A program made the position numbers and the translations under genes. The notes under the pieces were generated by a model, which saw only the letters and a list, made by a program, of their open reading frames with translations, was not told where the DNA came from and searched no databases. Below, one piece after another: positions 45,918 to 62,152 of a stretch of 64,000 nt of DNA (its first letter is position 1; each line of letters starts with the position of its first letter). The DNA comes from Bacteroidota bacterium. Lineage in GTDB: Bacteria > Bacteroidota > Bacteroidia > Bacteroidales > GCA-2748055. The DNA lies in the NCBI GenBank assembly GCA_002748055.1, contig PDRI01000095.1, positions 3,081-67,080 on the forward strand, given 5' to 3'.

Positions 45918-46213
45918 AGCAAATAATTGTTTTTGTAATTGACTGTAATCTCTTACGGAAATCTTTCAAGAAGGTTTGTAAATCGTAAATAAATATTTTA
46001 ACACTAACATCTAAGGCTCACTACTTAAATACCTAAAGATAAAGATTTGGGTTGCAGCTTGCCTTCTCATTTTGACCGGCTTGCGGTATTCGATGACATC
46101 CCGGCTCAATTGCTTTCACCCTGATGGCAAAGTGCCAAGCACTAAAAAACAGCCATTCGTCCAGCGGGAATCGCCATTGGTCACAAGATAATACAATTCT
46201 AACACTCCCAAAA

Positions 46214-48637
46214 CTAGGACGGTTTCTTTTTGGGCTTGTTTAATGCCGGAATTCTGTTGAACAGTCCCTTCCTCTTTTGTTGCGTATAGTACTTTCCATG
46301 TGCCCCTTTCTTTGGAATGTCTCCATTGATGAGCAAATGCAGGTTCTTAATGTCCTTGGCCTCAATATCGTCGAGGGTCTGCAACAGCATTCTTTTTTTC
46401 ACAATGCCCAGACGCGATACATAAATGTTGATGTCGGAGTAGCGCATCAGCACAAACGAGTCGGTCAACAGCCCATAAGGTGGTGTATCTATGATGATGT
46501 AGTCGTACTTTTTACGCAGTTCTTCAAACAAAATCCTGGTCTGATCCCCGGAAATCAACTCAATGGGATTGGGAGGAATCTGCCCTGCAAGCATAATGTC
46601 CAGATTGGGCACCCCCGATGAGATGGTAATCTCTTCCATGGAAGCCTTGTTGATCAGATAGGAGCTAACACCCACCAAACCTCTAATACCAAGGGTATTG
46701 TAAATGTCGCTTGGGCGTCTAAGGTCAAATTCCACCAGGATGGTTTTATTGTTGGTGACCGCCAGAGAACTCGCCAGATTCAGGGCCGAAAAAGACTTCC
46801 CCTCTCCTTCCATGGTTGAGGTAACCAGAATCACCTGGTTCGACTTCCCCATCAAATAGTAAATAATATTGCTTCGAAGCGAATGGAAAGCCTCAGCAGC
46901 AATGGAATTAGGCTGGTCCCTGATGACATTGATGGTGCCCCTGGCATGCTGCGGAATACTGCCCACCTGGTTGAGGCTCGTATAGCGCCGGAGCTCCTCC
47001 TTATTGGCAACACGATTGGTAAACATCTTCCGGATCAGAACGAAGGTGATGGGGATGAGTAAGCCAAAAAGAAAGGCCCCGATCAGCACCAGTACTTTCT
47101 TTGGCGCTGCAATTCCGGCATACTGCGGAGGTTCGACCAGCTCACAATCGGAAAGCGTAGAGGCCTTGATGATTTGCGCCTGAATACGTTGCTCCAACAA
47201 GGACATATAGACCCCTTCACTCAGGTTAAACTTCCGCTCTATCCCCAGCAACTGCCGCTGGGTATAGGGCAGGCTTTTGTACTCCCTGTCCAGTTGGCCG
47301 ATCCGGCTGTTAAGCTCCCTGAGCTCGGCATTTGCCGTATTCAGGCTGTACGAGATATTCTCCATAATCAGCCGCTCCAGATTGGCGATGGTAATATTCA
47401 GGGTCTTCAGCCTCGGGCTTCTCAACTGCTTATTATTGATCAGCTGCTGCCTCTCGGTGGCCATAGAGGTTAGTTCCTCAATCAATGCAGTAAGCTGGGG
47501 ATCGTTTATACCCGCAGCTGAAGGGGCAAGCATGCCTGTCGATTCATTGGATGCAAAATAGTCCTGCATTTGCTGCAGGTAATTACGTCTGCGTTCGATG
47601 TCGTCACGCTCCAATTCCGATTCCTGCAACTGGTTATAAACATTCCCTGCCTTCTCATCGATATTCATTACACTGGAGCTGCGCCTGATGTTTTGCAATT
47701 CCTGTTCCGAACTGCCCAGGGATTTGGAAATATCGGCCAACTGGAAATCGAGATGCTCTATCGTCTTCTCTGCCAGATGATTCTTTTTCTCAAGATTGTT
47801 CTCGATATACTTCTCCACTAAATGGTTCAGAAAATCAATTCCCTTTTGAAGGTTTCCGGAACGCATAGACATATCCACCATTGTCGCATCAACGGAAGAG
47901 GCTTCAACCTTCAGGGCCTGCTTAAACTGCCCCGTCAGCGCAGCCTTCGAATTAAATCGGAAAAAGAGATCCTTGCCCTGGTAAGCATCTGCATTGTAAT
48001 TTGAATTCAGAACGAGCTTGAATGAGGCATATTCATTCTCTACCACATCGCCGAATTTATACTCTCCCCCAAGTTGAAATGAAGTGGAAGGAATCACATA
48101 CTCATCACTCTCGAAATTGACTATACTCACCTCATTTCCATTCGCGGCTATCGAGTAACGCTCATCATCCAGTATCTTCACATAGAATAAAACATCCACA
48201 ACCTGCAGGTGCTTCTTATCCGGAAAAACCAGAAAAGGGGATTCGGTATAAAGCTCTTTCATACTGAATTCCATCTCTTTCGGAATCCTGTCTTCCTGGA
48301 GATAATAAGATACCTGCACATCCATTTCCTCTACGACCGACCGAATCAGGGGAGTGGAACCCATCAGGTAGATTTCGTTTTGCAGGTTCTTGTCCTGTTC
48401 AATCAGTTCATTCACCCTCATCATATCCTCGGATCCGCCTCCATAGGCATTGGAACGCTCCATTTTCAGGACAACCGAGGCGGCCACATTGTATTCCCTG
48501 GCGGCAAACTTCACATAGAACATCCCGATCCCCAGGGTCAGCCCCATGGAGATAACCACCACATACCAGAACTTGAACAGATCCCGAATAAACTCGATCA
48601 GATAGCTCAGGACATTCTCATTGATACTATTCGTCAT
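46214..48637 (-). CDS. wzc: Polysaccharide co-polymerase / tyrosine autokinase (Wzc/GumC-like, PCP-2a).
   Basis: 807 aa. It has an N-terminal TM segment, a long coiled-coil periplasmic region and a second TM segment. Walker A: LVTSTMEGEGKSFSALNLA. Walker B-like: YIIIDTPP. Confidence 0.85.
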   Translation of the reverse strand: MTNSINENVLSYLIEFIRDLFKFWYVVVISMGLTLGIGMFYVKFAAREYNVAASVVLKMERSNAYGGGSEDMMRVNELIEQDKNLQNEIYLMGSTPLIRSVVEEMDVQVSYYLQEDRIPKEMEFSMKELYTESPFLVFPDKKHLQVVDVLFYVKILDDERYSIAANGNEVSIVNFESDEYVIPSTSFQLGGEYKFGDVVENEYASFKLVLNSNYNADAYQGKDLFFRFNSKAALTGQFKQALKVEASSVDATMVDMSMRSGNLQKGIDFLNHLVEKYIENNLEKKNHLAEKTIEHLDFQLADISKSLGSSEQELQNIRRSSSVMNIDEKAGNVYNQLQESELERDDIERRRNYLQQMQDYFASNESTGMLAPSAAGINDPQLTALIEELTSMATERQQLINNKQLRSPRLKTLNITIANLERLIMENISYSLNTANAELRELNSRIGQLDREYKSLPYTQRQLLGIERKFNLSEGVYMSLLEQRIQAQIIKASTLSDCELVEPPQYAGIAAPKKVLVLIGAFLFGLLIPITFVLIRKMFTNRVANKEELRRYTSLNQVGSIPQHARGTINVIRDQPNSIAAEAFHSLRSNIIYYLMGKSNQVILVTSTMEGEGKSFSALNLASSLAVTNNKTILVEFDLRRPSDIYNTLGIRGLVGVSSYLINKASMEEITISSGVPNLDIMLAGQIPPNPIELISGDQTRILFEELRKKYDYIIIDTPPYGLLTDSFVLMRYSDINIYVSRLGIVKKRMLLQTLDDIEAKDIKNLHLLINGDIPKKGAHGKYYTQQKRKGLFNRIPALNKPKKKPS

Positions 48638-48645
48638 TGTTCTTT

Positions 48646-49422
48646 CTACCTTACGTAATTAATCATGAAAGTCATTACCACTATCGAGAGTGAAGCGATG
48701 GACAGGAGCAGGTCATACGGGAAGACATCCAGGCCCCATTTCTTCGAATTCAGTGGTTTAACATAGATGATGTCATTCGATTTAACCATGTACAACTCGG
48801 AGGTCAGAAGATCGTCCCGGGTCAGATCTATCTCGTATTTAGACCTGTACTCACCCTCTTCCCTGACGATAAGCACATGGTTTCTATCGCCGAAAACGGC
48901 AATATCTCCCGCATAACCAATGGCCTGCAGAATATTTACACTTTTGTAGTTGAAAACATAGACCCCAGGGCGATTTACCTCACCCAAAATCGTCACTTTG
49001 TTATTTACAAAACGAATAAAGACCGATGGGTTCAGAAGGTACTGTGACAATTCCGCCTCAATCAAATCCGATGCTTCGAGCAGGGTAAGCCCGGAAACCT
49101 TGGTACGGTTGATATAGGGAAGCTTAATGAAACCACCATCATCCACGGTATGGCTCAATAAAGAGGGATCGTGAACATTCTGATTCGCCTGCTGGCTAAA
49201 ATTGGTCTGTGTTTCATCATCGCTCGTCACCCGGATATAAATCTCATCACCCTGGCGGATCTTATTGTCCATATTCTGGTCGATGAAGTACATATTGTCT
49301 TCCTGCTGAGCAAGCATTTCCTTTGTTTCTTGCACGTACATTACCTTCCTATTCGGAACGCAGGCTGCCAGCAACAGCAGTGCCAGCAAACTGAGAATAA
49401 CAGGCCCCTTGTTTCTTTGCAT
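48646..49422 (-). CDS. wza: Polysaccharide export outer-membrane protein (Wza-like, Poly_export plus SLBB).
   Basis: 258 aa. Lipoprotein-type signal LLLLAACVP. Motifs: IRQGDEIYIRV and VTILGEVNRPGVY. It lies 8 bp upstream of wzc. Confidence 0.8.
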   Translation of the reverse strand: MQRNKGPVILSLLALLLLAACVPNRKVMYVQETKEMLAQQEDNMYFIDQNMDNKIRQGDEIYIRVTSDDETQTNFSQQANQNVHDPSLLSHTVDDGGFIKLPYINRTKVSGLTLLEASDLIEAELSQYLLNPSVFIRFVNNKVTILGEVNRPGVYVFNYKSVNILQAIGYAGDIAVFGDRNHVLIVREEGEYRSKYEIDLTRDDLLTSELYMVKSNDIIYVKPLNSKKWGLDVFPYDLLLSIASLSIVVMTFMINYVR

Positions 49423-49533
49423 ACTAAAACGATTTAAACCGATTTAAAACTACCGCCTAAATTAACAGAATATACCCGAAGTGCATGAAAATCGCTGTGA
49501 AAAAAAAGGAGGAAAGCTGCCCGGGCAAAACAA

Positions 49534-50961
49534 TCAATGCCCCCCGGCTATAAAAAAGGTCTTTACCGTCTTTATAAACAAACCGATGTCCTTCCCGATG
49601 TTCCAGTTGTCGATATAGTGCATGTCCAGCATCATCCACTCTTCGAAGGAAACATCATGCCGGTTCGGAACAATTTGCCAGGAACAGGTAATCCCGGGCT
49701 TCACCGACAGCCTTCGGAGTTGCCAACGCTCGTATTGCTTCACTTCAGACTCCAGCGGAGGCCGCGGGCCAATCAAAGACATATCCCCTTTTACGACATT
49801 CAAGAGCTGGGGAAGCTCATCAAGACCTGTTTTCCGGAGAAACTTACCTATGCCCGTAATCCGGGGATCATCCTTCATTTTAAAAACAGGCCCGTCCGCT
49901 TCATTCCTGGCCTTTAGCTTCTTCAACTGGGCTTCGGCATCCACCACCATTGTCCTGAACTTATAGAGCTTAAACTTCCTGCCACGCAGGCCAATTCTTT
50001 CCTGCATAAAGAAAACCGGCCCCTTGGATGTGAATTTAATCATGATGGCAATCAGCAGGAAGAAGGGAGAAAGAAGCACCAGGGCAAGCATGGAAAAATA
50101 CACATCCCCCATGGATTTCAGAACCAGGGAAAGATTGTTGGAAGGGGCATCAATGATGGACAGGTCATTGGTTTTGTTCAGGGTTTTAAGCTGGAATTCA
50201 GTGGGATCAAGTGGTGAAACTGAAGACTGAAGGCGGAAAACTACACCAATCTCGTTACAGGCATCCACAATCTCCTTAATGAATTCAATGTCTACGTCCC
50301 TCCGACAGTACAGGACCTCATCAATAACCGTATTGTCTAGCTCCTTTTTCAGGGACGCGTCCGGGGGGAGAATCGTAATGTAGGACCCATATTTGGCCCT
50401 GATCAACTTGGAATCGGTCAGTATGGAAACAATATTAAACCCCCACTCCTTTTGCTTCATCAGGTTCTCGATCGTACCATCGGAAAAAGCATCGGCGATG
50501 AGCAGCACATTGTGAAAGCTTTTGCCGCTCGACCGGTAACTCTTCAGAACCTTAAAAACGAACATCTTGAAAATAAGGAGCAGCACATATAAGACCCCGG
50601 AATAAACCGCTACCAGCATCACCGGGATAGAGGTCAGTCTGAAAACGACCTTAAACAACAATAAAAGGATGAAAATCAGAAAAATCCCACGGCCAAACTG
50701 GAAAGCCAGTGTCAGATAGCGCTGGGTTCTGGGTACCCTGGCCATGCCCGTAATACGGGAAAGCACAAACCAGGACATCAGAATAAAAATAAAAAATACC
50801 ACAGCCTGGAAATCCTTCAAAACCATATCGACCACGTAGAATTGTGTGATCCAGATGGCAACGGGAAACGCAAGGCTGGCAAGAAGCATTTCAATCACAT
50901 CAATGATGAAGTGCCCCTTCTCCTTCTTTGGCTCGGTTATGCCTTTGTGCGTTTTTGACAT
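49534..50961 (-). CDS. Polyprenyl-phosphate sugar phosphotransferase (WbaP/bacterial sugar transferase family), the initiating enzyme.
   Basis: 475 aa with N-terminal TM helices. C-terminus: FMQERIGLRGRKFKLYKFRTMVVDAE...DPRITGIGKFLRKTGLDELPQLLNVVKGDMSLIGPRPP. Confidence 0.9.
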   Translation of the reverse strand: MSKTHKGITEPKKEKGHFIIDVIEMLLASLAFPVAIWITQFYVVDMVLKDFQAVVFFIFILMSWFVLSRITGMARVPRTQRYLTLAFQFGRGIFLIFILLLLFKVVFRLTSIPVMLVAVYSGVLYVLLLIFKMFVFKVLKSYRSSGKSFHNVLLIADAFSDGTIENLMKQKEWGFNIVSILTDSKLIRAKYGSYITILPPDASLKKELDNTVIDEVLYCRRDVDIEFIKEIVDACNEIGVVFRLQSSVSPLDPTEFQLKTLNKTNDLSIIDAPSNNLSLVLKSMGDVYFSMLALVLLSPFFLLIAIMIKFTSKGPVFFMQERIGLRGRKFKLYKFRTMVVDAEAQLKKLKARNEADGPVFKMKDDPRITGIGKFLRKTGLDELPQLLNVVKGDMSLIGPRPPLESEVKQYERWQLRRLSVKPGITCSWQIVPNRHDVSFEEWMMLDMHYIDNWNIGKDIGLFIKTVKTFFIAGGH

Positions 50962-51139: not shown

Positions 51140-51281
51140 CGAAACTTAGCCCAAGTTATTCCGGCTATTGACCATTGAAAAACGCTCGTTCGTCAATTCC
51201 TTAAAAAAAACTCCAAAAGGGCATAAACAATCTTTGCTACCTTTACTTTCTCGAACAACGCACCCTTTTGAAGCAGTATTT

Positions 51282-51650
51282 ATGGAAGACCTACTGATTA
51301 AAGCGACCGACAAAGCAATGGGCGTCGACCTGTCCTATGGGATTCTGAACTTCACCGGTCGATCTATTCTCACCGATCCAAAAGTGTTTTTTGAACCGGT
51401 AAATGCCTGGGTTACGAAGTATTTGAAAAAACCGGCAGAAGAAACAGTGGTCAATGTAAAACTGGAGTACATTGACACGGCCTCCACCCAAGCCCTCTAT
51501 CAAATGCTGAGGCAGCTGAATGGCCTGAGAAAGAAAGGGCTTGTTCTTATGGTAAACTGGCACATCGAAGATGACGACCCCGAAATGAAAGAGTTGGGCG
51601 AGATGATTGAACAGCGCCTGGGGCTGGAGTTTCAATTCATTTCTTTCTGA
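51282..51650 (+). CDS. DUF1987 / SiaC-family small regulatory protein (122 aa).
   Basis: The track ORF starts with TTG at 51168. The ATG at 51282 gives MEDLLIKATDKAMGVDLSYGILNFTGRSILTDPKVFFEPVNAWVTKYL...VNVKLEYIDTAST...WHIEDDDPEMKELGEMIE. This layout matches DUF1987 as I recall it. Confidence 0.7.
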   Translation: MEDLLIKATDKAMGVDLSYGILNFTGRSILTDPKVFFEPVNAWVTKYLKKPAEETVVNVKLEYIDTASTQALYQMLRQLNGLRKKGLVLMVNWHIEDDDPEMKELGEMIEQRLGLEFQFISF

Positions 51651-51679
51651 GGGGGTGAAAAAAAACGTATTTTGGACCC

Positions 51680-52489
51680 ATGGCAGATGACCGCCCTAAA
51701 CTGAGCCGTAGCGAACTTGAGGAAGCCTGTCTGCGGCAAAACATCATTATCCAACGCAAAGATCCCCTGACCGGGTCAAGCATCAACCTTCCCAACATTG
51801 AGAAAGTAAACAAGATGATCCGGGAGTTCGACATACTGGTGGATGGAGCCTCCCGCGGAAAGTCGGTTAATGAGATTAGTAAGATTGAACGTTTCTTATA
51901 CGAGCACGAAGATGATCCCGAGAAGCAGAGCGAATACCTGGCTTCCTGCTACAGTAAGGCATCGATGTACATCGAAGCACAGCGGAGTCTGCTGAATGAC
52001 AAGCATTCGGAGAACTGGAAATACTTGTTTGTCAGCTACTTTAAGTTAGAAGACATCTATTACTACTTCAACAAAGGGATCAGTGCCTCCGTTTTTTTCA
52101 AGGATTTCACCCTGTACAAGGACATGGTAGAGCTGACCTACCACGTCAAGCTTATGAATTATCTGCGCAGCCAGGTCCAGCTTCAAATCCTTCCCGAAGC
52201 CGAGAAGGATCTTCCTTCACCCATTGAGGATGTTAACCTGAAACTGGCTATCATCCACCTGCTGGGCATAAGTGATCTTTTAACAAAGCGCAGTACTCAG
52301 CAGGGGCTGGCCGGCCTTGCCCGCTTTTTTACGGTCATTTTTGGAGAGGATCCGGCTTCATGGCGCAGTCTGCTGAAAAAGCTGGAACAAATTGGAAGCG
52401 GAAGTGACAAGGACATCCTGAATGAGCTAAACCTGTGTAAAGCCAAAGAAATCATCTCCGTATTCGGAATTGATTTGGAAAAAGACTAA
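51680..52489 (+). CDS. Hypothetical protein (269 aa), apparently helical, with no recognisable motif.
   Basis: Clean ORF with 29-bp and 39-bp gaps to the flanking SiaC-like genes. No signal peptide or TM segment is evident. Confidence 0.6.
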   Translation: MADDRPKLSRSELEEACLRQNIIIQRKDPLTGSSINLPNIEKVNKMIREFDILVDGASRGKSVNEISKIERFLYEHEDDPEKQSEYLASCYSKASMYIEAQRSLLNDKHSENWKYLFVSYFKLEDIYYYFNKGISASVFFKDFTLYKDMVELTYHVKLMNYLRSQVQLQILPEAEKDLPSPIEDVNLKLAIIHLLGISDLLTKRSTQQGLAGLARFFTVIFGEDPASWRSLLKKLEQIGSGSDKDILNELNLCKAKEIISVFGIDLEKD

Positions 52490-52528
52490 TTGCTATATTT
52501 GTAATTAATTACGAGAAATAGAATAACC

Positions 52529-52900
52529 ATGGAAAAAATTAGTATTGAACCCACAAAGAAATCACTGGAAGTTGAATGCGCACCTGGTTACTTTAAACTC
52601 TCTGGGAACTCAATACTGTCCGATCCACGGAAATTCTTCAAGCCCATCGTCGAATGGGTCGAAGTCTATGTTCAGCAACCAGAGGAGTTAACCACGATCG
52701 ACCTGAAGCTTGAGTATGTCGATACAGCATCCGTCCAAAGCGTATTCGACATTATGCGTATGTTCAAGCCCCTCCAGGAACAGGACAAAGAGGTTGCGGT
52801 CAACTTCTATTTCGAATTCGATGATCCGGAATTGCTCGAACTGGGTGAGATCATGGAAGGCAGACTTGGTATCAAATTCAATTTCATCGAATACCAGTAA
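52529..52900 (+). CDS. Second DUF1987 / SiaC-family small regulatory protein (123 aa).
   Basis: MEKISIEPTKKSLEVECAPGYFKLSGNSILSDPRKFFKPIVEWVEVYV...IDLKLEYVDTASV...FYFEFDDPELLELGEIME. It is collinear with 51282..51650. Confidence 0.7.
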   Translation: MEKISIEPTKKSLEVECAPGYFKLSGNSILSDPRKFFKPIVEWVEVYVQQPEELTTIDLKLEYVDTASVQSVFDIMRMFKPLQEQDKEVAVNFYFEFDDPELLELGEIMEGRLGIKFNFIEYQ

Positions 52901-53212: not shown

Positions 53213-54181
53213 ATGATTGATCGCAGACGTTTTATTCAGGCAGGAGCAATGACCGTTGCAGGTGCGGCACTGGCCGGATGTACCACCAGTGGAAACCAGG
53301 AAGCTCCGGAAGCCAGTAAACCAAAAAATATCCGTCATAATCCCATTGGGGTTTCGACCTATTCTTTCTGGCAGTTTAACCGGCCAAAAAATGACCCCCC
53401 CATTGAAGAAATCATCGATAAGGTTGCAGCCATGGGCTTCGACGGAGTTGAACTGCTTCTGGTACAGATGGCCGCCGAAGATACACCCTACCTGAATAGT
53501 TTGAAGCGAAGAGCTTTTCATGCAGGTCTCGACCTGATGGGCTTTTCCACTCACCAGGGTTACGTCAGACCCGATAAAGCCTACCGTGACGAAAACATCG
53601 CACTGACCATCCACCAGATTGAGCTGGCCTATCAACTTGGCATCCCCACCATGCGGATTAATACCGGCCGCTGGGGCACTTCGGAATCCTTCGATCATTT
53701 GATGGAGAACAGGGGGATTGAACCTACCATTGAAGGCTACACCGATGAGGATGGCTTCAAGTGGGTAATCGATGCCATGGAGCAGATCGTACCTGTAGCC
53801 GAGAAATGTGGGGTTACACTGGGCCTTGAAAACCACTGGGGACTGGGACGCACAGCCGAAGGTGTCAAGCGCATTGTTGACGCTATTGACTCACCGTGGC
53901 TGAGCGTAACACTCGACACAGGAAACTTCCTGGAAGAGCCCTATGATGAGCTTAAGAAACTGGCTTCAATGGCCAGTCTCATGCAGGCGAAGACCTATTA
54001 TGGAGGTGGAAAATGGTACACCCTTGATCTGGACTATCCGCGCATTGGTGCCATTATGAGAGATGCAGGTTACAAGGGCTATATCTCCCTCGAAATGGAA
54101 GGTAAGGCCGATCCGATGGAAGCCGTACCCCAGAGTCTGGAAGTCCTGCGCGACGCCTTCTGGTATGAAGTCGGGGCATAG
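53213..54181 (+). CDS. Xylose isomerase-like TIM-barrel protein (sugar phosphate isomerase/epimerase family) with a TAT/lipoprotein signal.
   Basis: MIDRRRFIQAGAMTVAGAALAGC (twin-arginine plus Cys). Motifs: GFDGVELL, LGLENHWG, DTGNF, ISLEMEG. Confidence 0.85.
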   Translation: MIDRRRFIQAGAMTVAGAALAGCTTSGNQEAPEASKPKNIRHNPIGVSTYSFWQFNRPKNDPPIEEIIDKVAAMGFDGVELLLVQMAAEDTPYLNSLKRRAFHAGLDLMGFSTHQGYVRPDKAYRDENIALTIHQIELAYQLGIPTMRINTGRWGTSESFDHLMENRGIEPTIEGYTDEDGFKWVIDAMEQIVPVAEKCGVTLGLENHWGLGRTAEGVKRIVDAIDSPWLSVTLDTGNFLEEPYDELKKLASMASLMQAKTYYGGGKWYTLDLDYPRIGAIMRDAGYKGYISLEMEGKADPMEAVPQSLEVLRDAFWYEVGA

Positions 54182-54236: not shown

Positions 54237-54267
54237 GCTCCCGGCTTACCCCCGGGAGCTTTTTTTT
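54237..54267 (+). terminator. Rho-independent terminator.
   Basis: GCTCCCGG-cttaccc-CCGGGAGC followed by TTTTTTTT, and preceded by an A-tract. Confidence 0.8.
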
Positions 54268-54369: not shown

Positions 54370-54377
54370 TACTTTTG
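54370..54377 (+). promoter_or_regulatory. Candidate -7 promoter box (TAnnTTTG).
   Basis: TACTTTTG lies 20 bp upstream of the ATG at 54397. Confidence 0.4.
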
Positions 54378-54396: not shown

Positions 54397-56340
54397 ATGA
54401 CAGAAAATCTGTTCACCATTCTTAAAGAAAAGAAAATCAAGCTCTCCGATCGCATCACCGATCTGCTTGAAAACTGCCAGGGCTTCAGCGTAGCCGATAC
54501 CACCCTGGAACTGGCCGACGCCTCCACAGGCGGAAAAGACAAGATGTCCTTTGATGTCGTTTATGACATCCCTGGCAAAGGGCCTTATACCGAGGCTGTA
54601 GTGCACAGGGTTCAGAACGGTATTTCGGCAAATTATACGGAACCCTATATGCGCCGCCGCGATCCCGAAACCATGGTCATCGCCGATGACAAACCCTCCG
54701 ATAAAACCAGATTCAAGGACAAATATGGCTACGATTTTGCCAGCCTGCAGGAAGAAACCCTGGCCTGGATGAAGGAGAGGAAACTGTCGGTTTTCTTTTA
54801 CTATGCGGGCCGGATGGGAATTGGTTCCCTGGGAATTGCAATCGTTCCGGATAACGCAGCTTTCTTCGCCATGGGATTGTCCATGCTACAGGAGATGGTT
54901 CCGGTGGCCAAGCTAAAAAAACACAGCGAGATCGCTTCTTCCATTCTTGTTGCACCTGTCTTCAGGCACACCCATTTCGAAGGGAAACAGGTCGTGGTGC
55001 ACAACCGGACCGACGAGATGCACGAATTGTATGCCTACAACCTCTATCCGGGGCCAAGTGCCAAAAAGGGACTCTATGGCGTGTTGCTTACCAAAGGAGA
55101 AAGAGAAGGTTGGGTAACAGCCCACTGTTCGGCCGTACAGTCGATCAGCCCCTACGACAATATATCCACCTTCATGCATGAAGGAGCCAGCGGAGGCGGA
55201 AAAAGTGAAATGCACCAGCATATTCTGAGGGAACCCGATGGAAGGGTTCTTCTTGGGGAGAACCCCAAAACCGAAGTGCTGCGCTACATCACCATTCCCC
55301 GGTTTTGCTCATTCAATCCGGTTGCAGACGATATGGCTTTCTGCCACCCTTCACTCCAAAGAAACGATGGTAAACTCCGGATCATTGATGCCGAGAATTC
55401 ATGGTTTGTTCGCGTGGACAGCGTACATCGCTATGGCGATGACCCTTCACTCGAACGGGTTACCATTGATGCCCGGGACCCGCTCCTTTTTCTGAACATC
55501 GACACCACTCCGGGTTCAACCGCCCTGATCTGGAATCACATCGAAGATGAACCGGGCAGGCCCTGCCCCAACCCCCGCGTTGTACTCCCCCGTAATACAG
55601 TTGAGAATGTGGTGGATGGCCCTGTGTCGGTCGACATACGCAGCTTTGGACTTAGAACACCTCCCTGCTCCAGCGAAGATCCTAACTACGGCATACTGGG
55701 ACTCTTCCATATCCTTCCTCCGACCCTGGCCTGGTTGTGGCGGCTGGTTTCGCCCCGGGGACACAAGAACCCCAGTATCGTGGGCTCGGACAGTATGGAA
55801 AGTGAAGGAGTGGGCTCCTATTGGCCTTTTGCCTCGGGCCTGCAAATCGACCATGCCAACATGCTGCTTAAGCAAATCATAGAGAGCCCGAGAACCACCT
55901 ATACCTTAGTCCCTAACCAGTACATCGGGGTATGGAAGGTGGGCTTCAAACCCCAGCTTCTGATGAGGGAATACCTGACCCGGAGGGGGGTGGCCAAACT
56001 CAAAAAAGAACAATACCAGTCGGCCCGTTGTCCGTTGCTGGGCTATGAACTGAACTACCTCACGATCGAAGGATCCAAAATACCTTCGCGCTTCCTGAAA
56101 GTATACAAACAGGACGAGGTAGGTACTGAAGGCTATGATGCGGGGGCGGAGATTCTGACCAAGTTCTTCAAAGAAGAACTGCAGAAATACCTGAAAAAAG
56201 ACCTGCTGGCCACCGGTAAGCGCATCATTGATGCCTGTCTCTCGGATGCCACAGCAGAGGAGTACAACCAGATAGTCCCGATGAGCTATTCCTACTCCTT
56301 CCAGCACCTTTCGGACTACGAGGAGAGCAACAGCCATTAG
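54397..56340 (+). CDS. Uncharacterised 647-aa cytoplasmic protein with an HprK/PEPCK-like P-loop. It may belong to the family annotated DUF4914 in Bacteroidota.
   Basis: No signal peptide. Walker A-like HEGASGGGKSEM at 55183-55206 fits GxSGxGKSE. The family assignment is from memory only. Confidence 0.6.
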   Translation: MTENLFTILKEKKIKLSDRITDLLENCQGFSVADTTLELADASTGGKDKMSFDVVYDIPGKGPYTEAVVHRVQNGISANYTEPYMRRRDPETMVIADDKPSDKTRFKDKYGYDFASLQEETLAWMKERKLSVFFYYAGRMGIGSLGIAIVPDNAAFFAMGLSMLQEMVPVAKLKKHSEIASSILVAPVFRHTHFEGKQVVVHNRTDEMHELYAYNLYPGPSAKKGLYGVLLTKGEREGWVTAHCSAVQSISPYDNISTFMHEGASGGGKSEMHQHILREPDGRVLLGENPKTEVLRYITIPRFCSFNPVADDMAFCHPSLQRNDGKLRIIDAENSWFVRVDSVHRYGDDPSLERVTIDARDPLLFLNIDTTPGSTALIWNHIEDEPGRPCPNPRVVLPRNTVENVVDGPVSVDIRSFGLRTPPCSSEDPNYGILGLFHILPPTLAWLWRLVSPRGHKNPSIVGSDSMESEGVGSYWPFASGLQIDHANMLLKQIIESPRTTYTLVPNQYIGVWKVGFKPQLLMREYLTRRGVAKLKKEQYQSARCPLLGYELNYLTIEGSKIPSRFLKVYKQDEVGTEGYDAGAEILTKFFKEELQKYLKKDLLATGKRIIDACLSDATAEEYNQIVPMSYSYSFQHLSDYEESNSH

Positions 56341-56410
56341 GAGGGACATTGATAGCCTGTGAACAGAAAGATTCTTGTTAACTTCACATCCAACTAAAAC
56401 CACTTGTAAA

Positions 56411-57010
56411 ATGAGAAAAACATTGTTTCTTACGCTGGCTGTTGTATGCGGACTGCAGGGCATGGCCCAGGCACAAGGTAAAAAGCTGTTCAATGGCAAA
56501 AACCTGGATGGCTGGATCATCTACGGCACCGAAAAATGGTATGTAGAAGATGGACTCCTGATCTGTGAAAGCGGGCCCGACAAAGCTTACGGCTATCTGG
56601 GCACCAGTGAGACTTTCAAGGACTTCGAACTCACCCTGGAATTCAAACAGGGAGCAGATGGGAACTCAGGGGTCTTCTTCCGCTCATCCATCGAAGGCAC
56701 GAAGATTACCGGCTGGCAAGCCGAAGTGGCCCCTCCCGGCTCCAACACAGGCGGTATCTACGAGTCTTATGGAAGAGGCTGGCTTATCAAGCCGGATCCT
56801 GAGCTGGACAAGCACCTGAAATTTGGCGAGTGGAACAAAATGAAGATCCGGGTGGTTGGCGACAACGTAGAAACCTGGCTAAACGGTCAGAAAATGATCA
56901 GCCTGGAGGACGAGAAAATCGGTCAGGCTGAAGGCTGCATTGCGCTTCAGATCCACAGTGGAGGCGGCATCAGGGTGATGTGGCGGAACATAAAGATCAC
57001 GAGCCTGTAA
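56411..57010 (+). CDS. DUF1080 (3-keto-disaccharide hydrolase-like) secreted protein.
   Basis: The likely start is MRKTLFLTLAVVCGLQGMAQAQ at 56411. Motifs: LFNGKNLDGW, W.VEDGLL, NSGVFFRS, GWQAEV, EWNKMKIRVVGDNVETWLNGQK, IALQIHSGG. Confidence 0.85.
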   Translation: MRKTLFLTLAVVCGLQGMAQAQGKKLFNGKNLDGWIIYGTEKWYVEDGLLICESGPDKAYGYLGTSETFKDFELTLEFKQGADGNSGVFFRSSIEGTKITGWQAEVAPPGSNTGGIYESYGRGWLIKPDPELDKHLKFGEWNKMKIRVVGDNVETWLNGQKMISLEDEKIGQAEGCIALQIHSGGGIRVMWRNIKITSL

Positions 57011-57040: not shown

Positions 57041-57059
57041 AGGCTGACAGCCTTTTTTG
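57041..57059 (+). terminator. Weak candidate terminator.
   Basis: AGGCT-gac-AGCCT is only a 5-bp stem, followed by TTTTTTG. Confidence 0.3.
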
Positions 57060-57101
57060 TATCTTGTCCACGACATTAAGCAACGCACGAAAATTTTTAT
57101 C

Positions 57102-58049
57102 ATGAAACAAGTACGCAATAGACGCGATTTTCTGAAGGTTTCCGCAGCCGGAAGCCTGGGTGTAATGGCCCTGGGCGCCATGGCATGTAAGAGTGGAACA
57201 GGAAAAGTTGCCGCAGGCCATGAGGCTGCTGCCGCTGTCGATTTGAAAAGCTTTGAAATTGGGCTTCAGCTCTACACCATCCGTGATGCCATTGCAGCAG
57301 ACCTTCCCGGTTCCCTGAAAAGGGTTTCTGAGTTGGGTTATAAGAATCTGGAGCTGGCAAACTATGCCGACGGAAAGTTCTATGGTTATGCCCCGGAAGA
57401 GTTCAAGGCAATGGTTGAGGATCTTGGCATGGCGATCATCAGTTCTCATACCAAGGTTGAAGCAGCGGGGATTACGCTTGACAATGCAAAATTCATGGCC
57501 GATGCGCATGCCAAATTGGGAGTTAAGTACTGTATTCAGCCCTGGGTAAACGAAGAAGAGCGGAATGTGGAGTCTTACAAACGGATGATCGCCGATTGGA
57601 ACAAGGTGGGTGAAATTATGAAAGAATTCGGCATCCAGTTCGGGTACCACAATCACAATTTTGAATTTGCAAATCTCGACGGCATTGTTCCCTATTATGA
57701 GCTTTTCCTGAAAGGACTTGATCCCGAGCTGGTTATCATGGAACTTGATCTTTACTGGGCCAGCAAAGCCGGCCAGGACCCGGTAGAGTTGTTCAGGAAC
57801 TATCCTGGTCGCTTCCATCTCTTCCACATGAAAGACATGACCACAAAGGGCGAACCCTACTATGACATTGTCAAGGATGACATCACCTCGGTTGGAGCCG
57901 GAGTAATCGACTTCAAGCGCATCCTCGCAGAGAGGGAAACGGCCGGCCTGAAGTACATGTTCGTTGAAGACGACAACCAGGGCAACGGGCACCCCTTTAA
58001 AGGCATCGAAACCAGTATTACGAATCTGACCTCAGATATCCTGGTTTAA
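57102..58049 (+). CDS. Second xylose isomerase-like TIM-barrel protein with a TAT/lipoprotein signal.
   Basis: The likely start is MKQVRNRRDFLKVSAAGSLGVMALGAMAC at 57102 (the track ORF starts at 57057). Motifs: GYKNLELA, FGYHNHNFEF, LFHMKD. Confidence 0.85.
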   Translation: MKQVRNRRDFLKVSAAGSLGVMALGAMACKSGTGKVAAGHEAAAAVDLKSFEIGLQLYTIRDAIAADLPGSLKRVSELGYKNLELANYADGKFYGYAPEEFKAMVEDLGMAIISSHTKVEAAGITLDNAKFMADAHAKLGVKYCIQPWVNEEERNVESYKRMIADWNKVGEIMKEFGIQFGYHNHNFEFANLDGIVPYYELFLKGLDPELVIMELDLYWASKAGQDPVELFRNYPGRFHLFHMKDMTTKGEPYYDIVKDDITSVGAGVIDFKRILAERETAGLKYMFVEDDNQGNGHPFKGIETSITNLTSDILV

Positions 58050-58274: not shown

Positions 58275-59426
58275 GTGGCGGAAGATCACAAGCAAGACAT
58301 CGTTATCGTTACCAATGGGTTCCAGACCGATTACATGTGGAACCTGGTGAATGGCATTTCAAAACACTGCCGTGTGCTGTTGATTTGCTCCAACGACCTG
58401 GCCCGGCTTACTTTCGATTCAAATGTAGTTGTCAATAACCTGAGAGGGGATGTCAACAGCAATGTGGCATTTCGGAAGAAGATTGCCCGTTTACTCAGGT
58501 ATTATCGGCGGCTCTTTTCCTTTATCGCGAAGTCAAGGGCTAAAGTCCTGCACATTCAATGGCTCAGAGTCTATGTCATCGACGGCATCTTCCTCACCCT
58601 CTTTGCACGGGCCAGAGGGAAAAGGGTCATCTATACAGCCCACGACGTGCTGCCCCACGACAAAGACACCCTCACGAACAGACTGCTGTTCCGCATGATC
58701 TACAAGCTTCAGAATGAAATTATTGCCCATACAAATTTTATTCGAAAACGGCTGATCAATGAATTTGGACTACGCGAATCAAAAGTTCATTTCATCGAGC
58801 ATGGCGTCTATGAGGTAGAAGAAAAGAAAGAAATAAGCGTTCAAAAAGCCCGGGAAAAGTACGGAATAGAAGCGAACGATTTTGTTATTCTTTTTTTCGG
58901 CAGAATTGCGCGTTACAAGGGGGTTGAACTGGTAGCTTCCATCCTGGACCAGATTGATTCAGATCGTCAGCGGGTCAGGCTCATTATTGCCGGGAGGGCC
59001 TCTAAGGACTATGAAGCTGATTTTATGCGCTTTTACGAGAGCGTAAAATCGGATAAAATCATCCCCAGGTTTGGTTTCATTGAGGACCAGGAGCTTGAAT
59101 GGTTATTCAAGGCATCAAGCCTTACGGTATTGCCATACCAGGAAGCCAGTCAGAGCGGCGTGCTGTTTATGTCCTATGCCTTTGGAATCCCGGTTGTTGC
59201 ACCCAGACTTGGAGCCTTCCCGGATTATGTTTCAGAACCGGAAACCGGAATTCTTTATCATCCCGATTCTGAGAACGGACTTTTGAACGCACTGCTGGAA
59301 GCCCGTCGTCACTACGGCCAACCCGATGAATCCAGAAGAGACCATATAAAATCCTTTGCCCATAAGAATTTTGCATGGGATTCGAGTGGAAAGCGATTGT
59401 ATAGTCTTTACATGAAAAACCAGTGA
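58275..59426 (+). CDS. Group 1 (GT4) glycosyltransferase.
   Basis: 383 aa with a GTG start (no in-frame ATG nearby). Motifs: VIYTAHDVLPHD, ILFFGRIARYKGVEL, LTVLPYQEASQSGVLFMSYAFGIPVVAPRLGAFPDYV. Confidence 0.75.
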   Translation: MAEDHKQDIVIVTNGFQTDYMWNLVNGISKHCRVLLICSNDLARLTFDSNVVVNNLRGDVNSNVAFRKKIARLLRYYRRLFSFIAKSRAKVLHIQWLRVYVIDGIFLTLFARARGKRVIYTAHDVLPHDKDTLTNRLLFRMIYKLQNEIIAHTNFIRKRLINEFGLRESKVHFIEHGVYEVEEKKEISVQKAREKYGIEANDFVILFFGRIARYKGVELVASILDQIDSDRQRVRLIIAGRASKDYEADFMRFYESVKSDKIIPRFGFIEDQELEWLFKASSLTVLPYQEASQSGVLFMSYAFGIPVVAPRLGAFPDYVSEPETGILYHPDSENGLLNALLEARRHYGQPDESRRDHIKSFAHKNFAWDSSGKRLYSLYMKNQ

Positions 59427-60403
59427 ATATGGCCGACGCGAACAACCCATTCATCTCAGTCATTATTCCCTCCTACAATGCTTACCGTACAATTGGTCGT
59501 ACGATAACGGAAATTAAAAAACAGCGTTCCGGAGGGATGTTGCTGGAGATTATCGTTGTTGATTCCTCTGATGATGAGCAAACCAAAACACTGCTGAACA
59601 GTTTTGAGGGAGACGGGCTTAGGGTAATCACTTCGGGGATCAGGGTTATGCCGGCCATACAGCGTAACATTGGAGCCAGGGCTGCAAAGGGAAAACTCCT
59701 GGTGTTTATCGACTCAGATGCCTATCCTGATCCGGATTGGCTTCAAAAAATCAGTGAAGCCTACTCGAAGGGCTATCGTGTGGGAGGCGGGAGCTATCTT
59801 GTTCCTGAGGAGCAGCTCAAAAACAAGCAGATCGTCGCTCAGTACTATTTCGAGTTTGGAGAGTATATCCCCGCAGGACGAATCAGGAAGAAGAAGATGG
59901 CCCCAACCTGCAATCTTTTCTGCGATCGGGAATTGTTCTTTGAAGCAGGAGAAATCCCCGTAATCCGGGCTTCAGAGGACACCCTTTTTGGCCTGAATGT
60001 GAACAAAATCAGTCCCCTCTACTTCTTTCCCGAAATCAAGGTATACCATGTCTTCCGTGAAGATCCAAAGCACGCCTTGTCGAATCAGAACCTGATTGGC
60101 AAATTTATCATCATCTACCGGAGAATCTATTACAAGGGAATCTACGGATCGAAGATCAGCTTGCTGGTCCTTTACCCCATGATCATCTGTTACAAGTTTT
60201 TCAATGTCTATCTGAGAAACCTCTTCCCCGAACCCCGGCATTTTCTGAAGCTTAATACCGTGTTATTCAAATTTATCCAATGCACCTGGTACTGGGCGGG
60301 AGGAGCCTTTCAAGGCATCTTCTACGATGTGATCAATGACCCGGACAATTCCATGCCGGATGAAATAAAGTCGGTGTCTTCCTCCCCTAGTGTGCAAATG
60401 TAG
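59423..60403 (+). CDS. Family 2 glycosyltransferase.
   Basis: ISVIIPSYNAYRTIGRTITEI...EIIVVDSSDDEQT...VFIDSDA. The GTG at 59423 overlaps the upstream stop (GTGA). An alternative ATG lies at 59429. Confidence 0.8.
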   Translation: MNMADANNPFISVIIPSYNAYRTIGRTITEIKKQRSGGMLLEIIVVDSSDDEQTKTLLNSFEGDGLRVITSGIRVMPAIQRNIGARAAKGKLLVFIDSDAYPDPDWLQKISEAYSKGYRVGGGSYLVPEEQLKNKQIVAQYYFEFGEYIPAGRIRKKKMAPTCNLFCDRELFFEAGEIPVIRASEDTLFGLNVNKISPLYFFPEIKVYHVFREDPKHALSNQNLIGKFIIIYRRIYYKGIYGSKISLLVLYPMIICYKFFNVYLRNLFPEPRHFLKLNTVLFKFIQCTWYWAGGAFQGIFYDVINDPDNSMPDEIKSVSSSPSVQM

Positions 60404-60433: not shown

Positions 60434-61288
60434 CTAAAGCGGCACATCCTTCACCCCGGCCAGACTATAGGTCTTCTCCTTTACCCACTTGGCCCATGCA
60501 AGCGGACGCCTGGAACTGTCAAAGGTCTGCCATGGGATGGGGTCCCCAACTGTAACGGTGATGTGCTTACCCCAGTGCTTGTAGGTTTCATCAATCAAAT
60601 AGAGCATCTCGATATTGGCTTTGATACCCAGCGCCTTTCGAATACTGGCCAGCCGATAGAAGAAATTGGTATTGGCCCCTCCCACATGGATGGGAACAAT
60701 GTCGCGCTGGTACTGTCTGGCCTTATTAATAAAACTCTTTTGCCATTCCAGATCCATTACCTCGCCCTTGATTCGACGACTGACCAGGCCGGCAGGGAAG
60801 GTCAGAATCTGCACCTCGGATTTGAATGCTTCATCCAGTTTCCTGGCCAGTTCAGTTCCCTGCCTTCCATGCTTATTCACCGGAATAAACACCCCGTGAA
60901 GGTTCTTCAGGTTCATCAGAAGGTCATTTACCAGACACTTATAGCTATCCGGCCCGTATTTTCTTCCGAGCATGACCATGACAATATGGCCGTCCAGGCC
61001 TCCCCAGGGGTGGTTGGCCGCAAAGATGTAACGGCCATCATCGGGCAGCCTCTCCTCACCAACAAAATCAATCTTCAGCTCGAATAACTCGAGCATGGCC
61101 ACGCTGAAATCGTAGCCCTGCAGGTGACCGTAGTCCCTGATGATTTGATTAATCAAATCCTGGTGAAAAATTCGCCTCAGATAGCGATAGACAAAACCCG
61201 GAATCCATCTGGCCAGCCTTGGATTCTTATCGTAGAACAAATCCTTAAAGTCAATTTCCCTGATGTCGTTTTTCGTTCCCTTATCCAT
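60434..61288 (-). CDS. Lysophospholipid / 1-acyl-sn-glycerol-3-phosphate acyltransferase family (PlsC-like).
   Basis: 284 aa. HX4D motif in [12 protein letters not shown], followed by FPAGLVSRR. Confidence 0.7.
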
Positions 61289-61417
61289 AGTACGGCAATC
61301 ATATCTGTAACCAAAAGTATAAAATCAGCTGAAAAAGGGCCAAAAGATTCGCCTGATGCTTACACCCGGGCATATTTTGCTTTGAATCGAAGTGGAATCG
61401 CCTTATATTTGGATACT

Positions 61418-62152
61418 ATGACTATCCGAATAGCCGACAGCGTGGAGGAAATGGGAAGGCAGGCCGCCCTTGAAGGATCCGCGCTAATCCGTCAGGCAAT
61501 CAATGAAAAGGGCTCAGCACGCATCATTCTTGCCACTGGCGCTTCCCAGTTCAAGGTCCTGAAGCACCTGGTACAGGAAGAGATTGACTGGGCAAAGGTA
61601 ACCGGCTTCCATCTCGATGAATACATCGATTTGCCCCTGAATCATCCGGCTTCATTCCGGAAATACCTAAAGGAACGCTTTGTAGATCTGGTGCCGATAG
61701 GCACCTTCCACTACATAAACGGAGAACATGACCCGGCCAAAGAATGCAGGAAACTTGGCGAACTGATTGCAGAAGCCCCTGTAGATGTGGCTTTTGTAGG
61801 TATCGGGGAAAATGGTCACCTGGCCTTCAATGATCCTCCGGCCGATTTCGAAACGGAAGAGGCCTATCTGGTAGTGGAGCTGGATGAGCTGTGCCGGCAG
61901 CAGCAACTTGGAGAAGGCTGGTTCGAACAGATCGGAGAAGTGCCCGGAAAGGCCATCAGCATGTCTGTTCGGCAGATCATGAAAAGCCGCCACATCATCT
62001 GTTCGGTGCCCGATGCCCGTAAGGCCAAAGCTGTGAAAGCGACCGTGGAAGGAGAAATTGGCCCCATGCTTCCGGCATCAGTCTTACGCAGGCACCCCAG
62101 GACTCATTTGTTTCTCGACCGGGAGGCAGCTTCCCTGCTTTCCGATTCTTAA
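61418..62152 (+). CDS. nagB: Glucosamine-6-phosphate deaminase / 6-phosphogluconolactonase family protein.
   Basis: The likely start is [17 protein letters not shown] at 61418 (the track ORF from 61124 overlaps the divergent gene). Motifs: [31 protein letters not shown]. Confidence 0.8.

Follow-up and report, generated by a model that had tools for sequence, protein, structure and literature searches.

The 64,000-nucleotide stretch analysed here (the window; contig PDRI01000095.1 of a Bacteroidota bacterium of the order Bacteroidales) carries at 54397..56340, on the forward strand, an ATG-to-stop open reading frame (ORF) of 647 amino acids that is a gene of the uncharacterised family DUF4914. 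We found that DUF4914 is, with near certainty, a family of the phosphoenolpyruvate carboxykinase (PEPCK) superfamily and a metal-dependent P-loop phosphotransferase. Its product is best read as a cytoplasmic two-domain enzyme of this superfamily, and its function as that of a metal-dependent carboxykinase at or near the oxaloacetate/phosphoenolpyruvate (PEP) node. PEPCK sits at the PEP-pyruvate-oxaloacetate node, and the nearly complete PEPCK catalytic set in DUF4914 turns a blank family into a testable enzyme hypothesis; it points to a flux, a donor specificity or a layer of regulation, so far unrecognised, at a central point of metabolism.

The protein matches Pfam PF16260 (DUF4914) with E = 4.6e-283 and 940.4 bits, against a cut-off of 25.7, and it does so end to end, with protein residues 16-626 aligned to profile positions 1-611 of 612. 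An identical sequence is on record as 'MAG: DUF4914 domain-containing protein [Bacteroidetes bacterium]'. A preliminary description of the gene, made from the DNA letters, had placed it in this family, which is borne out. A confident match to a characterised enzyme, which would have told against that description, was not found: no characterised family in Pfam, NCBIfam or the library of papers searched claims the protein. None of the NCBIfam models match the 647-residue protein, and searches of the PDB sequences gave 0 matches both for this single sequence and for the 128-residue P-loop region alone. Only the DUF4914 family profile, and no single-sequence query, reached PEPCK in the PDB sequence searches. 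The polypeptide had been called otherwise unrecognisable, which holds for single-sequence searches of NCBIfam and PDB and fails for the protein as a whole, which is homologous to PEPCK over both domains.

An AlphaFold2 model built on a 44-sequence alignment reached a mean pLDDT (predicted local distance difference test) of 92.9 and a pTM (predicted template modelling score) of 0.90. When this model was compared by Foldseek with the PDB, all 50 of the 50 matches listed were PEPCK entries, and the alignments spanned 610-650 columns, so that both PEPCK domains are covered. E. coli ATP-PEPCK (6at3) matched with E = 1.6e-23 and a template modelling (TM) score of 0.75 on the target; the listing also holds the ATP-PEPCKs of Thermus, Actinobacillus and Anaerobiospirillum, and the GTP-PEPCKs of rat, chicken, Mycobacterium and Polaromonas. 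The preliminary description had proposed a comparison with PEPCK and HPr kinase/phosphorylase (HprK/P) structures, and the fold found is that of PEPCK. Its assignment of an HprK/PEPCK-type P-loop therefore stands on the PEPCK side and falls on the HprK/P side, where the wording of the Walker A motif alone is alike.

Profile comparisons lead to the same superfamily. A 10-sequence DUF4914 profile, run by hmmsearch, matched the N- and C-terminal parts of T. thermophilus ATP-PEPCK with E = 4.6e-10, and the ATP-PEPCKs 1ytm and 1ii2 with E values of 4e-7 and 1e-4; the sequences aligned in this way include the Thermus, Anaerobiospirillum and T. cruzi enzymes. By hhalign, E. coli PckA was matched with 91% probability (E = 1e-6, 396 columns) and a GTP-PEPCK with 93% probability (E = 3e-7, 225 columns), and these similar scores suggest that DUF4914 is roughly equally remote from both types. 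Global hhalign to E. coli PckA aligned the tails only. Greedy local hhalign (mact 0.01) reached the N-terminus and paired the DD metal motif of PEPCK with the unconserved G282-E-N; we rejected this pairing because D311/D312 are invariant and because the spacing of 6 from the following Glu to the Lys or Arg fits PEPCK only with D311/D312.

The family is large and strongly constrained. A word-index search found at least 8,000 proteins with E <= 1e-5, every scored candidate passing, and the best 120 relatives are 72-79% identical to the query. An exhaustive search found 630 proteins among 50%-identity representatives, of which about ten are full-length distant representatives (26-53% identity). 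Scanning of genomes placed relatives at 70-79% identity in Bacteroidales, Marinilabiliales, Cyclobacteriaceae and Flavobacterium, and also in Chlorobiota (Prosthecochloris, Chlorobium) and Cloacimonadota. A profile of the distant members retrieved proteins of Cellulomonas, Rarobacter, Micrococcales, Fibrobacteria, Spirochaetes and Omnitrophica. The family had been described as one of Bacteroidota, which is too narrow, with members also in Chlorobiota, Cloacimonadota, Fibrobacteria, Spirochaetes, Omnitrophica and Actinomycetota (for instance Cellulomonas and Rarobacter). Apparent domain fusions (an 831-residue form, DUF4914 + MFS, and Cyclase + DUF4914) proved to be truncated pieces or domain-less extensions on short contigs, and we treated them as artefacts of gene calling or assembly.

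Conservation was assessed on an alignment of 147 full-length homologs, 26-77% identical to the query, to which all conservation values below refer. At least 98% conservation was found at 44 positions. In the P-loop these are S265, G266, G268, K269 and E271, while G263, A264, G267 and S270 are 90-98% conserved; the P-loop that had drawn attention to the gene is thus real and not a chance match. Outside it, the positions conserved to at least 98% include Y217, G219, K223, K224, H243, D311/D312, E333 and R339, as well as N392-P393-R394, R86, R88, R190, H202, R420, R454 and R524. Both the P-loop lysine (K269) and the downstream acidic residues (D311/D312), for which a conservation check had been suggested, are among them.

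In E. coli PEPCK, K254 and T255 bind the nucleotide phosphates and Mg2+; K213, H232 and D269 bind Mn2+; R65 and R333 bind oxaloacetate/PEP; and Y207 lines the CO2 site. With E. coli numbering checked against the MG1655 pck gene, the features of the DUF4914 gene and their PEPCK counterparts are as follows, all on the forward strand.

54652..54660: R86-R87-R88 in MRRRDP; candidate equivalent of the substrate-binding R65 of E. coli (GRSPKDK loop).
55045..55071: YPGPSAKKG with Y217, K223 and K224; counterpart, by hmmsearch and hhalign, of the PEPCK-specific YGGEMKKG (E. coli Y207, K212, K213).
55120..55137: AHCSAV with H243; counterpart of PEPCK MHCSAN, whose E. coli H232 is an Mn2+ ligand.
55177-55212: P-loop stretch HEGASGGGKSEM, residues 261-272.
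55183..55209: Walker A or kinase-1a loop GASGGGKSE (S265, K269, S270, E271), aligned to E. coli GLSGTGKTT (S250, K254, T255).
55210..55311: insertion peculiar to the family, about 28 residues long and lying within 272-305, after the P-loop and before the metal-binding DD strand, recognised from the Lys-to-DD spacing and the model.
55327..55332: D311-D312, invariant; they align with the DD of ATP- and GTP-PEPCK and correspond to the metal ligands D268/D269 of E. coli (kinase-2).
55393..55413: E333...R339 (DAENSWFVRV); counterpart of E. coli E282...K288 (FEGGCYAK) and of GTP-PEPCK NPEAGFFG.
55570..55578: N392-P393-R394, invariant; counterpart of E. coli N331-T332-R333 with the substrate-binding Arg, aligned to 'KNTRVAYP' of T. 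cruzi and 'ENTRVSYP' of E. coli.
55753..55830: PRGHKNPSIVGSDSMESEGVGSYWPF, residues 453-478; aligned by hhalign to a 21-residue E. coli segment, the mobile active-site lid region of PEPCK.

The span 55183-55206 given earlier for the P-loop covers the GASGGGKS core alone, a trivial offset. In the lid, P-R454-G...EGVGSYWPF pairs with E. coli E-R-G...SACFGAAF; residues P453, R454, G455, S460, G471, G473 and F478 are at least 98% conserved, and residues 451-470 form the lowest-confidence block within the model (pLDDT 77-82), which fits a mobile loop. The R65 equivalent is probably R88 or R86, judging from the invariant loop M-R-x-R-D-P, after which comes a YIVRDD-like strand.

Of the features that mark the PEPCK superfamily, three are present: the two-domain fold, the kinase-1a P-loop with K269 and S270, and the metal residues K224, H243 and D311/D312. 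For the substrate and CO2 residues, Y217 and R394 align and are invariant, the R65 equivalent being a proposal from the loop just described. Residues Y207, K212, K213, S250, K254 and D269 of E. coli PEPCK have been mutated in PDB structures, according to entry titles among the Foldseek matches listed.

We propose a mechanism on the basis of the PEPCK fold, the motif conservation and the alignment given here, with the chemistry carried over from the biochemistry of E. coli PEPCK. The P-loop residues K269 and S270 would hold the beta and gamma phosphates and the Mg2+ of the phosphoryl donor, and K224, H243 and D312 would bind the catalytic Mn2+. R394, probably together with R86/R88, would bind a small alpha-keto or enol acid by its carboxylate or phosphate, with Y217 predicted to lie near the CO2/enolate site, and the mobile lid (453-478) would close over the reaction. 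This would be oxaloacetate + phosphoryl donor <-> PEP + CO2 + acceptor, or this chemistry applied to a close analogue, with ATP, GTP or pyrophosphate (PPi) as candidate donors. Our tentative choice, to which we give a little less than an even chance, is that DUF4914 works as a second carboxykinase next to the canonical enzyme and carries out the PEPCK-type reaction on oxaloacetate/PEP.

The surroundings of the gene in other genomes add to this proposal. We compared 167 loci, made up of 80 genome loci, 80 metagenome loci (about 55% identity) and 7 loci from a look-up of the exact protein; neighbouring ORFs were clustered, and cluster representatives were annotated by Pfam, NCBIfam and PDB. A recurrent row was found, consisting of an XRE-HTH + cupin regulator, in some cases a HAD-IIIA phosphatase, DUF4914, PurE, Sua5/TsaC and a beta-carbonic anhydrase. 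The neighbours counted within 4 kb of DUF4914, in loci that are phylogenetically non-independent, are as follows.

XRE-cupin regulator: 44 loci, upstream in 43.
Sua5: 32 loci, all downstream and on the same strand.
PurE: 29 loci, 26 with the class II SAHK motif.
Beta-carbonic anhydrase: 14 loci.
HAD-IIIA phosphatase: 10 loci.
cysD: 10 loci of one lineage, with cysNC.
Unannotated ORF of about 296 residues: 9 loci.
Adenylate kinase: 6 loci.
Canonical GTP-PEPCK (PEPCK_N + PEPCK_GTP): 3 loci, L085 (3749-5605), L115 and L145 (9916-11703), on the same strand as DUF4914.

A CO2-linked gene (PurE, Sua5, beta-carbonic anhydrase or canonical GTP-PEPCK) lies within 4 kb in 44 of the 145 loci that have at least 1 kb of downstream flank, nearly always on the same strand, and this context is present both in relatives at 70-79% identity and in the branch at about 55% identity. 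The PurE neighbour has T. denticola PurE (3rg8, E = 1.3e-36) as its best PDB match, ahead of human PAICS. Class II PurE uses CO2 directly and Sua5 uses bicarbonate/CO2; the context therefore points to CO2-linked chemistry, as the PEPCK active site predicts. The adjacent XRE-cupin regulator would control the gene in many genomes, and DUF4914 would be co-transcribed with the CO2-dependent enzymes, an arrangement that suggests a role in carboxylation or CO2 economy alongside canonical PEPCK. DUF4914 is common in anaerobic and gut-type Bacteroidota, where CO2-dependent formation of C4 acids drives succinate and propionate fermentation, and its repeated grouping in an operon with class II PurE, Sua5 and carbonic anhydrase suggests a possible link to the need of these bacteria for CO2.

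The class II PurE (of T. denticola/human type), Sua5 and beta-carbonic anhydrase also form a recurrent same-strand trio (for example in L029, L032, L056 and L065, at about 12-14 kb), and this trio may be an operon of its own for adaptation to low CO2. The row in L145 runs regulator, HAD, DUF4914, PurE, Sua5 and GTP-PEPCK, the last of these filling the slot that beta-carbonic anhydrase takes in other loci.

Several observations weigh against a carboxykinase acting on oxaloacetate/PEP. The Pfam models of PEPCK (PEPCK_ATP PF01293; GTP type PF00821/PF17297) gave no match at E <= 1, and the profile alignments are unreliable before residue ~110, so that the equivalent of R65 is not reliably aligned. 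The adenine contacts R449/T455 of E. coli ATP-PEPCK find no conserved counterpart by alignment in what is a low-confidence region, where the alignments either put K518/F517 and M523 there or leave the segment out. The family also has invariant residues of its own (E66, R86, R190, Q198, H202, H261, E271, D331 and R420), which together with the 28-residue insertion could reshape the substrate site. From the P-loop Lys to the DD motif there are 42 residues in DUF4914, 14 in E. coli PckA and 20 in a GTP-PEPCK, and the insertion is modelled as two beta-strands, 284-288 and 295-298. E66, R86, R190, Q198, H202, H261 and R420 are without PEPCK equivalent, and the Walker A motif ends in the invariant E271, as in HprK/P, where PEPCKs have Thr or Asn. 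As to context, the neighbour counts come from related genomes, and in most loci, including the source window, DUF4914 stands alone among unrelated neighbours; standalone genes were likewise seen on contigs of Cellulomonas, a spirochaete, Fibrobacteria and Micrococcales. A GTP-PEPCK adjoins DUF4914 in at least three genomes, which speaks against plain redundancy and would allow for another substrate. Finally, a literature search on DUF4914 found no paper mentioning the family in the library covered and no functional study; searches for PEPCK-like or carboxykinase-like proteins or PF16260 likewise found nothing relevant.

Some of these points favour a PEPCK scaffold with another chemistry or substrate, which would act on some other small anionic metabolite by phosphorylation, either alone or combined with decarboxylation. 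Candidates are another beta-keto or 2-oxo acid, a sulfonate analogue such as sulfopyruvate, or bicarbonate, and the extra invariant Arg and His residues with the insertion would form the new site. R86, R190, Q198, H202, H261, E271 and R420 are at least 98% conserved without PEPCK counterpart, the insertion lies beside the P-loop, and a canonical GTP-PEPCK is the neighbour in L085, L115 and L145. In addition, ten loci of Prolixibacteraceae/Mariniphaga type have the gene between an SLC13-type transporter with XRE-cupin and cysD/cysNC, and PEPCK active sites do accept sulfonates (PDB titles 6at3, 6asn and 9e35). However, every alignable PEPCK residue for oxaloacetate/PEP, Mn2+ and CO2 is kept, the ATP-, GTP- and PPi-dependent PEPCKs are equally diverged from each other and catalyse the same reaction, and the cys context is limited to one lineage. 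We regard a change of chemistry or substrate as unlikely, if far from negligible.

In these Mariniphaga/Prolixibacteraceae-type loci (L021, L022, L030, L035, L042, L053-L055, L060) DUF4914 is flanked by an SLC13/CitMHS transporter and the XRE-cupin gene on one side and by cysD-cysNC and an NAD-epimerase on the other, an arrangement that places it inside a sulfate-activation operon.

A more specific form of the carboxykinase proposal is that DUF4914 is a fourth carboxykinase class serving CO2 economy, either with a donor other than ATP/GTP (for example PPi/Pi) or with higher-affinity carboxylation. It would fix CO2 into oxaloacetate when CO2 is scarce, or release or channel CO2 from oxaloacetate to the downstream class II PurE and Sua5, the whole unit being under the XRE-cupin sensor. 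If true, the second of these options would be a supporting role like that of PurK, performed by a completely different fold. We consider this version a long shot.

The preliminary description had instead proposed a sugar or sugar acid as the substrate, and the neighbours of the gene in the window bear on this claim. The features around the gene are as follows.

53213-54181: AP_endonuc_2 TIM barrel, xylose-isomerase-like, upstream of the DUF4914 gene (Pfam).
54237..54267, forward strand: GC-rich hairpin GCTCCCGG-7 nt-CCGGGAGC followed by T8, read from the sequence; a scan reports the same stem on the minus strand.
54370..54377, forward strand: TACTTTTG, which fits the Bacteroidota -7 promoter consensus TAnnTTTG and lies 20 nt ahead of the ATG; weak evidence.
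56375-57010: PF06439 '3-keto-disaccharide hydrolase' (DUF1080) gene, 34 nt downstream of the DUF4914 gene (Pfam).
57057-58049: second xylose-isomerase-like TIM barrel, downstream of the DUF4914 gene (Pfam).

Both TIM barrels match AP_endonuc_2 and, weakly, psicose-epimerase and IolE-like NCBIfam models; with the DUF1080 gene they look like a 3-keto-sugar processing module, which is unlinked to DUF4914 in other genomes. The hairpin with its T8 is likely the terminator of the upstream TIM-barrel gene, and DUF4914 would then be a transcription unit of its own. Hairpin and TAnnTTTG box together make an own promoter for the gene probable; the window holds 35 matches to TAnnTTTG where 35.7 are expected, which is no enrichment, and only the position of this one is suggestive.

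A PEPCK/HprK-like sugar or sugar-acid kinase working with the flanking TIM-barrel and DUF1080 genes would suit this arrangement, in which the gene lies among two TIM barrels and a PF06439 gene only 34 nt away, and three related loci have GntP permease, RidA and D-Ser-dehydratase-like genes downstream. However, the DUF1080 gene and the second TIM barrel occur in none of the 80 related genome loci, and the upstream TIM barrel is present in only six of the 80, at a distance of 3.5-7.8 kb; we therefore rejected the window neighbours as functional partners. Between the upstream TIM barrel and the DUF4914 gene lie the terminator-like hairpin and T8, the conserved active site is of the kind that handles C3/C4 keto acids, with the residues for oxaloacetate/PEP, metals and CO2, and the standalone genes of Cellulomonas, the spirochaete, Fibrobacteria and Micrococcales share no common sugar context. 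The sugar context is local to the source genome and gives no support to a sugar or sugar-acid substrate, and we hold such a kinase to be very improbable.

Neither the window nor the 80 genome loci yielded a canonical pckA. Elsewhere in the window, at 51168-52900, two ORFs of SiaC-family regulatory phosphoproteins (PF09345) bracket a 269-residue ORF without Pfam or NCBIfam match, a three-gene block that is 62-89% identical in L001, L003, L004 and L011. Positions 43518-50961 and 58275-60403 hold an exopolysaccharide-type locus with a He_PIG/Laminin_G_3 protein sorted by the type IX secretion system (T9SS), a Wzc-like tyrosine kinase (GNVR + AAA_31), a Wza-like exporter and a Bac_transf sugar transferase of the initiating type, with GT4 and GT2 glycosyltransferases farther along. 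A Glucosamine_iso-family ORF (60434-61288, minus strand), as called from a GTG start, overlaps a convergent acyltransferase ORF (61124-62152, plus strand) by ~165 nt; its Pfam match starts at residue 107, and its true start is probably further downstream.

Among known systems, HprK/P is the one whose wording the P-loop shares: GxSGxGKSE is the HprK/P Walker A consensus, it reads G263-A-S-G-G-G-K-S-E271 in DUF4914 and is followed by a DD motif, and the catalytic domain of HprK/P is itself PEPCK-like. An HprK/P-like protein kinase/phosphorylase, or another regulatory phosphotransferase that modifies a protein with ATP or PPi, might draw on this likeness, on the invariant E271 where PEPCKs carry T or N, and on the ~296-residue ORF with a kinase-like 'DHKPRH' loop that follows DUF4914 in 9 metagenome loci, but it is hardly credible, as Hpr_kinase_N and Hpr_kinase_C of Pfam give no match at E <= 1, no HprK/P structure is among the 50 Foldseek matches listed, and DUF4914, about twice the size of HprK/P, keeps a whole N-terminal PEPCK domain and small-molecule binding residues that HprK/P lacks. 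The DUF4914 protein is not an HprK/P.

The ORF mentioned here (about 200-350 residues, without Pfam match) adjoins DUF4914 in L101 (9309-10196), L095, L096, L100, L108, L123, L146, L156 and L158; of these 9 metagenome loci, 8 have it downstream and 8 have it on the same strand as DUF4914. Its 'LDHKPRHLIV...LVDYELL' resembles, by eye, the catalytic loop of a protein kinase.

To our knowledge, only three classes of PEPCK are recognised, dependent on ATP, GTP and PPi. With ATP-PEPCK (PckA, EC 4.1.1.49) DUF4914 shares the two-domain fold (TM 0.72-0.78 on the target), the motifs YxGxxKKG, HCSA, Walker A GxSGxGK[ST], DD, E...K/R and N-x-R, the lid segment and the C-terminal helical region. It differs in being only ~14-17% identical and ~100 residues longer, in having GKSE for GKTT, and in its post-P-loop insertion and extra invariant Arg and His residues; the PROSITE-type signature LIGDDEHxW reads VADDMAFCH in DUF4914 (segment PVADDMAFCH). 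GTP-PEPCK (EC 4.1.1.32; PEPCK_N + PEPCK_GTP) has the same fold, its DDIAWM...GRLYAINPEAGFFG resembles the DUF4914 segment DDxAxx...G+L..xxxE.G.F, and both have a longer spacer from P-loop to DD than the ATP type. The hhalign alignment with it covers DUF4914 residues 124-379 only, which is remote homology, and the two are not orthologues since both are encoded side by side in three loci.

The PPi-PEPCK of Propionibacterium freudenreichii (8e1u) is a fold match with E = 6.9e-21 and has the highest query-normalised TM of the matches listed, 0.70 as compared with 0.63 for ATP-PEPCK, which may reflect shared insertions or an effect of size or conformation. No sequence similarity of 8e1u to the DUF4914 profile was detected in the PDB sequences at E <= 10, and with ~1,100 residues against 647 the PPi-type architecture is not that of DUF4914. 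PPi-dependent PEPCK is mentioned in a 2020 FEMS review only as being without an InterPro family (PMC8100219). DUF4914 was already catalogued as a DUF, and its kinship with PEPCK can be reached by standard remote-homology tools, so it is no new kind of system; what it represents is a clade of its own, widespread and under strong constraint, next to the ATP, GTP and PPi classes of PEPCK.

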